From assembly GCF_055900595.2 (NCBI RefSeq), contig NZ_CM148325.1: a stretch of 64,000 bases of DNA. One strand, given 5' to 3'. Below the pieces are notes generated by a model, which was given only the letters and a program-made list of their open reading frames with translations, ran no database searches and was not told the origin of the DNA. The position numbers were made by a program, and so were the translations under genes. Positions 38,402-38,667 of the stretch are shown piece by piece; the stretch's first letter is position 1, and each line of letters opens with the position of its first letter.

Positions 38402-38510
38402 CCTGATGCGATGCATGCGCGTCCTGTCATGCCTCCGGGCATTGCGCATATGCGCATCTGGCGATTTCCGTCGCTTACCCTAAATCCGCCATCAACACCT
38501 TTGATTTGAT
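38402..38510. repeat. Degenerate direct copy of the argA 3' end and flank
   Basis: About 109 bp (cctgatgcgatgcatgcgcg...ccatcaacac) about 85% identical to 38559-38667, which contains the real argA stop. Confidence 0.7.
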
Positions 38511-38546
38511 GTAGGTCGGATAAGGCGTTCACGCCGCATCCGACGA
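38511..38546. repeat. REP-type palindromic unit
   Basis: gtaggtcggataaggcgttcacgccgcatccgacga: imperfect GC-rich palindrome lying between the two direct-repeat copies. Confidence 0.65.
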
Positions 38547-38558
38547 TGAGCGTCAATA

Positions 38559-38667
38559 CCTGATGCGATGCTAGCGTGTTTATCATGCCTCCAGGCATTG
38601 CGCATGTCGCATCTGGCGATTTCCACCACTTACCCCAAATCCGCCATCAACACTTTGGATTTACGCT
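38559..38667. repeat. Second copy of the direct repeat (overlaps the argA 3' coding end)
   Basis: Reverse complement of 38633-38653 encodes the ArgA C-terminus ...VLMADLG followed by the stop codon. Confidence 0.7.

Follow-up and report, generated by a model that had tools for sequence, protein, structure and literature searches.

A REP-associated duplication of the non-coding spacer between recD and argA in Escherichia coli

Structure of the recD–argA spacer

The recD and argA genes converge in the window (the whole 64,000-nt stretch of DNA that was analysed), and their stop codons are separated there by a spacer of 237 bp. Positions 38200–38900 were 100 % identical to E. coli strain Z0117EC0005. 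Two copies of one repeat unit are present, with an intact REP element between them, and the features of the locus are as follows.

36566–38392, + strand: recD CDS (ORF list; RefSeq annotation of the identical Z0117EC0005 stretch)
38389–38507, + strand: proximal repeat unit, 119 nt (repeat search, alignments)
38400–38436, + strand: proximal Z2-like REP in iREP orientation (weak half-match to Rfam naRNA4)
38438–38466, + strand: proximal Y REP remnant, 3′ half, ending in CGCATCTGGCGAT (alignment to the intact Y REPs of Escherichia sp. L005 and PapRG-04-4)
38453–38469 (proximal) and 38608–38624 (distal): 17-bp block shared by the two units (exact-block comparison)
38475–38507, − strand: argA pseudo-tail, a copy of the stop codon and last 10 codons (fuzzy match, alignments)
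38508–38545, + strand: non-repeated joint between the units, 38 nt, made up of 3 nt (GAT), the Y REP and 1 nt
38511–38544, + strand: intact Y-type REP, 34 nt, GTAGGTCGGATAAGGCGTTCACGCCGCATCCGAC (inverted repeat; first hairpin of Rfam naRNA4/REP325)
38514–38589, + strand: BIME-2-like pair of Y REP, 13-nt linker and Z2-like REP (match to Rfam RF02564, naRNA4)
38546–38662, + strand: distal repeat unit, 117 nt (repeat search, alignments)
38558–38592, + strand: distal Z2-like REP, part of the distal unit
38594–38619, + strand: distal half-REP remnant, with the second arm of the 17-bp block
38630–39961, − strand: argA CDS, 443 codons plus stop (ORF list, RefSeq annotation of identical DNA, translation control)

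Each unit reads, on the + strand, from the recD stop region and linker through a degenerate Z2-like REP and the 3′ half of a Y REP (CGCATCTGGCGAT) to, after a further 9 nt, the reverse complement of the argA stop codon and last 10 codons. The proximal unit consists of recD stop, linker, Z2-like REP, half-REP remnant (which carries one arm of the 17-bp block common to both units) and the copied argA tail; the recD stop codon (TAA, 38390–38392) sits in its first bases, and its recD end is the counterpart of the single unit in K-12-type strains. The distal unit starts with a relic of the recD stop and linker (ATGAGCGTCAAT, compared with ATAAACGTGATT in the proximal unit), continues with its own Z2-like REP and half-REP remnant and ends, as the original prediction had stated, with the authentic argA stop codon (38630–38632, − strand) and last 10 codons. 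The last 33 nt of argA (38630–38662) are all that the gene contributes to a unit of ~118 nt, which otherwise spans the whole convergent spacer beginning at the recD stop codon; the repeat is therefore more than a duplication of the argA 3′ end.

The repeat search returned direct repeats in three collinear blocks with a start-to-start spacing of 155–157 nt. Mean identity between the units was 89 % (MAFFT, 131 columns), or 84.6 % with three 1-nt gaps when the full units, including the diverged recD-stop end, were compared. Two copies of about 109 bp with about 85 % identity had been predicted; the copies are real and slightly wider than proposed. Their Smith–Waterman score was 134, far from random expectation: 2000 shuffles gave a mean of 14.6 (sd 2.2, maximum 29), and the maximum against 1052 other pieces of the window was 27. 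A 46-nt degenerate pattern representing the non-REP part of the unit had exactly two matches in the window, with none expected. A 12-mer at 156-nt spacing prompted the idea that homology reaches into recD; this was rejected, positions 38350–38399 and 38506–38555 sharing GGCGTT alone when compared by eye.

The repeat had also been described as tandem, which in the strict sense did not hold. The layout is unit–REP–unit without a second REP, and 38 nt (the REP) of the 156-nt period is present once only. Tandem Repeats Finder reported no array in the two-unit spacer because the copies are not head-to-tail.

The palindrome expected between the copies proved to be an intact 34-nt Y REP with a GTAG start and 14-nt arms that are 86 % complementary. 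It folds at −19.0 and −19.5 kcal/mol in the two senses, forms the sole strong hairpin of the spacer and is the only intact one among five REP-like pieces, the other four folding at −4 to −12 kcal/mol. In the proximal Z2-like REP the CTAC end has degenerated to CTCC and the hairpin is weak (−11.9/−7.2 kcal/mol); the Rfam naRNA4 half-match here (38379–38433) scored 27.8 bits. The copies do flank a REP, as predicted, but simple flanking is not the whole arrangement, since the junction Y REP and the distal Z2-like REP together form a Y–13 nt–Z2 pair of the BIME-2 type. The REP is an imperfect palindrome of ~35 nt with a GTAG end, it is extragenic, between the stops of convergent recD and argA, and it is paired across a short linker with a REP in inverse orientation (y and z2). 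REP-containing spacer sequence is also dispersed: megablast placed it at 8 sites in the median genome and at up to 20, and sequence of the unit outside the REPs was found at one locus only.

The argA pseudo-tail (AAATCAAAGGTGTTGATGGCGGATTTAGGGTAA) was found by fuzzy match 122 nt downstream of the true argA stop. In the window allele it reads 10 amino acids and a stop, with three positions differing from the authentic tail. Its position downstream of the real stop codon keeps it out of the ArgA translation product. The earlier view of the proximal copy as a decayed duplicate was correct in that it is a non-coding duplicate, and only partly so as regards decay, the copied tail still being readable to its stop. 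All three differences from the authentic tail are at synonymous third positions, which prompted a foreign functional origin as a candidate. This was rejected: two of the three are equally explained as a 1-nt deletion plus a 1-nt insertion by comparison with the second class of two-unit genomes (see below), leaving too weak a signal, and at the third (TTA/TTG) authentic argA is itself polymorphic, with TTA in K-12. A hidden gene was likewise set aside, neither the spacer ORFs of 34–45 aa nor a 111-aa antisense ORF having support and the pseudo-tail being beyond the true stop. The duplication neither makes nor breaks a gene.

Distribution, exchange and loss of the two-unit form

Copy number at the locus was surveyed in 5426 complete E. 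coli genomes and was found to vary. The two-unit form was present in 130 of them (~2 %), and 97.6 % were without the extra unit. Two classes were distinguished. Class 1 comprised 97 genomes that were at least 98.7 % identical to the window; among those listed many came from poultry, and others from human, pig, cattle, dog and water. Class 2 comprised 33 genomes that were 87 % identical to the window, for example 602354, SC423 and the O178:H19 strain 2012C-4431. K-12 (EC600, MG1655) has a single unit in a spacer of 61 bp, in which no REP is annotated, and the other common E. coli alleles have a single unit in a spacer of 81 bp.

Compared with other E. coli alleles, the short K-12 spacer (L001, 494–554; L088, 1775–1835) has lost 20 bp of the Z2-like REP. 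It contains a near-perfect 12-bp stem (GCCGGATGCGAC...GTCGCATCCGAC) with predicted folding energies of −28 kcal/mol in the recD sense and −34 kcal/mol in the argA sense, followed on the recD-sense strand by TTTT. This stem could terminate transcription in both directions.

The 73-nt non-REP part of the unit was matched in 5425 of the 5426 genomes, always at argA, once in each and twice in two-unit genomes only. A mobile element was rejected as an explanation on the ground that this part of the unit is confined to the recD–argA locus in the 5425 genomes. The one remaining genome gave no match at all to the locus. One record that carries it is labelled as a plasmid.

Classes 1 and 2 have homologous joints, and the sequence of the junction Y REP is identical in the two. 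The units differ by 11–15 % from each other and both differ by 13–20 % from all sampled single-copy alleles, so that either the event is old or the haplotype came from a lineage that was not sampled. Some variants are shared by both units within a class (CATCTGG and TTTCC in class 1, CATCCGG and TTTTC in class 2), and GGGCATTGCGCAT is common to all four units, the single-copy alleles having GA(A/G)TGTTA(T/C)GCAT at this place. Sharing within a class requires gene conversion or recombination with other alleles. The pattern of variants fits one old origin, which would have been followed by gene conversion or by exchange with other alleles.

Among class-1 spacers that were at least 99.6 % identical, the argA flanks differed at 58 of 1280 sites and the recD flanks at 40–43 of 1400. 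With argA alleles 4.5 % apart around one and the same class-1 spacer, either the spacer haplotype or its flanks must have been exchanged between lineages.

Loss of the extra unit was seen in CS18F (L089, 407–490). Its single unit carries the class-1 proximal state at all 14 informative sites of its left part and the distal state at all 6 of its right part, with one private change, and the switch point falls inside the 17-bp block CGCATCTGGCGATTTCC, which is the longest exact block between class-1 units. This is the product expected if a two-unit allele collapsed by a single exchange or slippage between the repeats; were CS18F instead the progenitor, all later changes must have hit the inner halves of the units only. 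No single-copy genome matched a chimeric query at more than 95 %, and a more specific query gave CS18F alone. The idea that recent class-1 collapse products are to be found among the common single-copy alleles was accordingly rejected. Efficient RecA-dependent exchange in E. coli needs ~23–27 bp. The longest exact block is shorter than this in class 1, so that the class-1 allele should be fairly stable; in class 2 the longest block is 33 bp.

Joints and origin of the duplication

A third two-copy architecture was found in PapRG-04-4, an E. coli from a baboon in the Gambia (L094, 2380–2522). Its 143-bp spacer contains a 57-nt repeat twice, at a spacing of 82 nt and with 91 % identity. The pseudo-tail is followed by 3 nt and the GTAGG of a Y REP, and this full Y REP runs into GATTTTCGTCGC-TTA, where TTA is the argA stop, an arrangement shared with the single-copy Escherichia sp. 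L005. No other example of the PapRG-04-4 form, or of a full Y REP adjoining the argA stop, was found among the 5426 complete E. coli genomes.

The single-copy spacer of L005 (2830–2935; record E. coli SCPM-O-B-8794, a GTDB species representative) holds an intact Y REP, which follows the argA stop at a distance of 12 nt, and the recD gene ends in TGA, not TAA. With recD and argA ~91–92 % identical to those of E. coli (8–9 % diverged), L005 is probably another Escherichia species despite its E. coli label. It was the outgroup for this comparison, being the only Escherichia from outside E. coli proper among the matches listed.

The three two-copy architectures have one joint in common, pseudo-tail–(GAT/TCC/TAC)–GTAGG. 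A GTAG is also found in argA, 6 nt past the end of the repeat (GGATTTACGCTGGTAG), and the sequence shared at the E. coli joint is the GTAG of the REP against argA ACGCTGGTAG; the CTAC of argA lies in AACTACCAGCG. From the shared joint and the argA GTAG it is reasonable to place the joint at or near a GTAG/GTAG microhomology.

We infer that the duplication began with illegitimate joining at the level of microhomology, in which the 5′-GTAG of a REP would have been joined to the chance GTAG of argA (ACGCTGGTAG), through template switching during replication or unequal exchange between alleles. In the reading favoured here the whole spacer, from the recD stop to ~33–36 nt inside the argA 3′ end, was copied and the copy joined through the Y REP to give unit–REP–unit, with a bigger REP cluster (BIME) in the 3′ region common to the two convergent genes as the result. 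In its behaviour the variant resembles other BIME polymorphisms: it is inherited, passes from lineage to lineage when its flanks recombine homologously, is remodelled to shorter forms and is lost by recombination between units.

A simple tandem duplication would leave unit–REP–unit–REP, so the observed layout cannot be the product of a single one and calls for two or more steps, or for a templated insertion where the units join. In an ancestor resembling L005, a tandem duplication of 82–85 nt comprising the Y REP, the 12 nt and the argA tail would give the PapRG-04-4 layout, provided that the proximal REP also lost its 5′ half. The 156-nt form and the PapRG-04-4 layout differ by a 75-nt segment flanked by CGCATCCGRCGAT. 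A PapRG-type allele could have come from class 1 or 2 by one 75-nt deletion between the CGCATCCGRCGAT repeats; alternatively, class 1 and 2 could have arisen from a PapRG-type allele through illegitimate exchange with a single-copy allele. The 1–4 nt at the joints are as in microhomology-mediated tandem duplication or template switching, a likeness that extends to the single C at the boundaries of the L076 array described below. The window allele differs from such events in not being a clean tandem product, so that extra steps or templated insertion are needed.

Beyond E. coli a second argA tail was rare. It was absent within 600 nt downstream of the gene in 79 of 80 argA loci of other Enterobacteriaceae among the matches listed. 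The exception, L076 (Enterobacteriaceae bacterium MGYG-HGUT-00110; 2779–3534), has a strict tandem array of 3.0 × 252 bp with 97 % matching, each unit consisting of the last 54 nt of argA and ~198 nt in which several REPs lie; the gene next to argA is not recD there. A REP ends in ...GGCCTAC 4 nt before each copied argA tail. The boundaries show 1 nt of microhomology (the single C), and the outer boundary is C|A, not C|T. The L076 array is thus the outcome of an independent and recent event of the same kind at the same end of argA.

Interpretation and alternatives

The locus is very probably the site of a segregating non-coding duplication of the E. coli recD–argA spacer, REP/BIME-associated and probably near neutral. 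This reading takes in the observed anatomy and distribution, the collapse product, the common joint and the movement across flanking backgrounds. That the duplication itself is probably close to neutral is suggested by the ~97.6 % of genomes that do without the extra unit, by its loss in CS18F and by the decay of four of the five REP pieces. By analogy with REPs elsewhere, the hairpin of the junction REP would form a barrier and so stabilise the convergent argA and recD transcripts at their 3′ ends, and the extra unit would do no more than lengthen the 3′ region that the two share. An effect on argA mRNA 3′ structure, as the original prediction suggested, is plausible.

Polymorphism of the BIME type is already known, the number of BIME units at one locus varying between E. 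coli strains (Ton-Hoang et al., 2012; PMC3333891), and what is new is one more case, at recD–argA. A literature search on the recD–argA spacer found nothing specific to this locus. In keeping with BIME polymorphism in the Gilson/Bachellier classification, the element is extragenic, lies between convergent genes, has opposed Y and Z2 REPs with a short linker and varies in unit number. It departs from that pattern in that the unit is mostly unique DNA of the locus (~70 of 118 nt, plus 33 nt of coding sequence), in the unit–REP–unit layout in place of a regular tandem array, and in that one of five REP pieces is intact. BIME units can take up fragments of flanking genes, as at codA–cynR, and there too, as far as the text of that paper describes the case, a gene fragment is carried in a REP duplication, at another locus (PMC3333891).

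In a comparison with large duplications, only part of the likeness is retained. Shyamala, Schneider and Ames (EMBO J, 1990) reportedly found REPs where large tandem duplications of the Salmonella chromosome are joined. A REP at the duplication joint is common to both systems; the Salmonella duplications are large, RecA-dependent, arise by exchange between REPs lying far apart and have REPs at their outer ends also, whereas here 156 bp are involved and the ends are the recD stop and argA coding sequence.

The duplication could instead be a footprint of the REP transposase TnpA_REP (RAYT), which would have bound a GTAG REP, cleaved at C|T and added a BIME unit together with the argA 3′ end. In vitro, TnpA_REP cleaves the CTAC end of an iREP (GCC|TAC) and C|T sites in the linker, even far from its binding site, and its strand transfer adds REPs (PMC3333891). 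In all three architectures 3 nt separate the GTAG/CTAC end of the REP from the pseudo-tail, the ...GGCCTAC end of the L076 REP lies 4 nt from each copied argA tail, and in the argA sense the joint GACC|TACATC-AAATC fits the published iREP-II site (PMC3333891). However, the joint is off the predicted cleavage position, with three variable nt between, and published amplification models give strict tandem units and not unit–REP–unit. No REP cleavage site coincides with the left boundary of the unit at the recD stop, a perfect type-I site (TGCC|TGAT, 38400–38407) falls inside the unit, and the outer L076 boundary has C|A rather than C|T. Involvement of the transposase is on this balance unlikely.

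A broader proposal, that the argA 3′ end is a recurrent hot spot at which a REP directs both capture and amplification of adjacent unique DNA, we regard as doubtful. If it were true, the joint of the three architectures and the L076 array would be in vivo footprints of REP-guided duplication, whether through TnpA_REP or through GTAG microhomology. REP-guided duplication that carries gene ends has been proposed from in vitro work and is hardly documented in genomes.

A selected regulatory role for the extra unit, as a 3′ UTR element or a naRNA4-like RNA acting on mRNA stability, termination or chromosome structure, is very improbable. REPs stabilise upstream mRNA and bind gyrase and HU. The class-1 haplotype is nearly invariant while standing on different flanking backgrounds, and the spacer folds better than shuffled sequence (z = −4.9 in the recD sense, −2.5 in the argA sense). 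The Y–13 nt–Z2 pair matched RF02564 over the full model length with 54.6 bits (E 1.5e-8), the order and distance of the two hairpins, Y then Z2 and 13 nt apart, being those of naRNA4/REP325. That score, however, does not reach the gathering score of 59.5, the second hairpin has degenerated and folds at −5 kcal/mol, and the geometry is that of BIME-2 elements in general, so the match does not amount to family membership. Consensus scans of the spacer found no sigma-70-like promoter and no intrinsic-terminator-like site, the REPs other than the junction Y have all degenerated and give weak folds, and the extra unit is missing from the great majority of genomes, CS18F having lost it without visible consequence. 

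Formally, a 38-bp REP between direct repeats resembles a mobile insertion (REPIN- or MITE-like) with the 117-nt repeats as its target-site duplication, and REPs are multicopy. The repeats of 117–119 nt nevertheless contrast with target duplications that are short (2–14 bp), and the unique part of the unit occurs at no other locus. To our knowledge a target duplication of ~117 nt is far outside the range for bacterial elements, and single-strand transposition of the IS200/IS605 type makes none. TnpA_REP is related to the IS200/IS605 family (PMC3333891). The REP beside the argA stop in PapRG-04-4 and L005 looks ancestral and was thus probably resident. No REP-less two-unit allele was found among the 5426 genomes, in searches that were aimed at other forms. 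We find an insertion of this kind barely credible. Chance similarity or an assembly artefact is practically impossible, the alignment score being ~54 sd above shuffles and the same structure recurring in 130 independently finished genomes.

For the biology of argA and recD a near-neutral, REP-associated duplication carries little weight, as no coding sequence is changed and nearly all strains dispense with the extra unit. Its modest value lies in a well-resolved natural series at one locus, which takes in one unit, duplications of 82 and 156 bp and a clean collapse product, with an independent triplication in another species. In such a series REP clusters grow together with neighbouring unique DNA, shrink, and pass between lineages by recombination. 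The locus might be used to test the role proposed for the REP transposase, or as a small marker of strains, many of the listed class-1 genomes being from poultry.

Divergence of the window from K-12 was mosaic, at 1–10 % per 200 bp, with no peak at the spacer. Introgression marked by raised divergence around the spacer was rejected as an explanation, the K-12 profile having no peak there. Positions 35600–36800 (recB/recD) and 40600–41400 (amiC) are 6.5–10 % from K-12 and lie among stretches at 1–2 %, a mosaic typical of recombination. The 3′ part of argA in the window is ~4–4.7 % from the alleles of K-12, APEC E12049, O178:H19 and PapRG-04-4; among K-12, APEC E12049 and O178:H19 themselves, 9–14 of 1280 sites differ.

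Further along, alignment of the window with K-12 breaks down at 41446–47010, ~5.5 kb between amiC and three tandem initiator tRNA-Met genes (47010–47306, − strand), the amiC–metV distance in K-12 being ~70 bp. Five ORFs on the + strand of this segment resemble, by eye, a PRD-type antiterminator, a PTS EIIBC permease, an aminotransferase/C-S lyase, a SIS-domain protein and a 2-hydroxyacid dehydrogenase.
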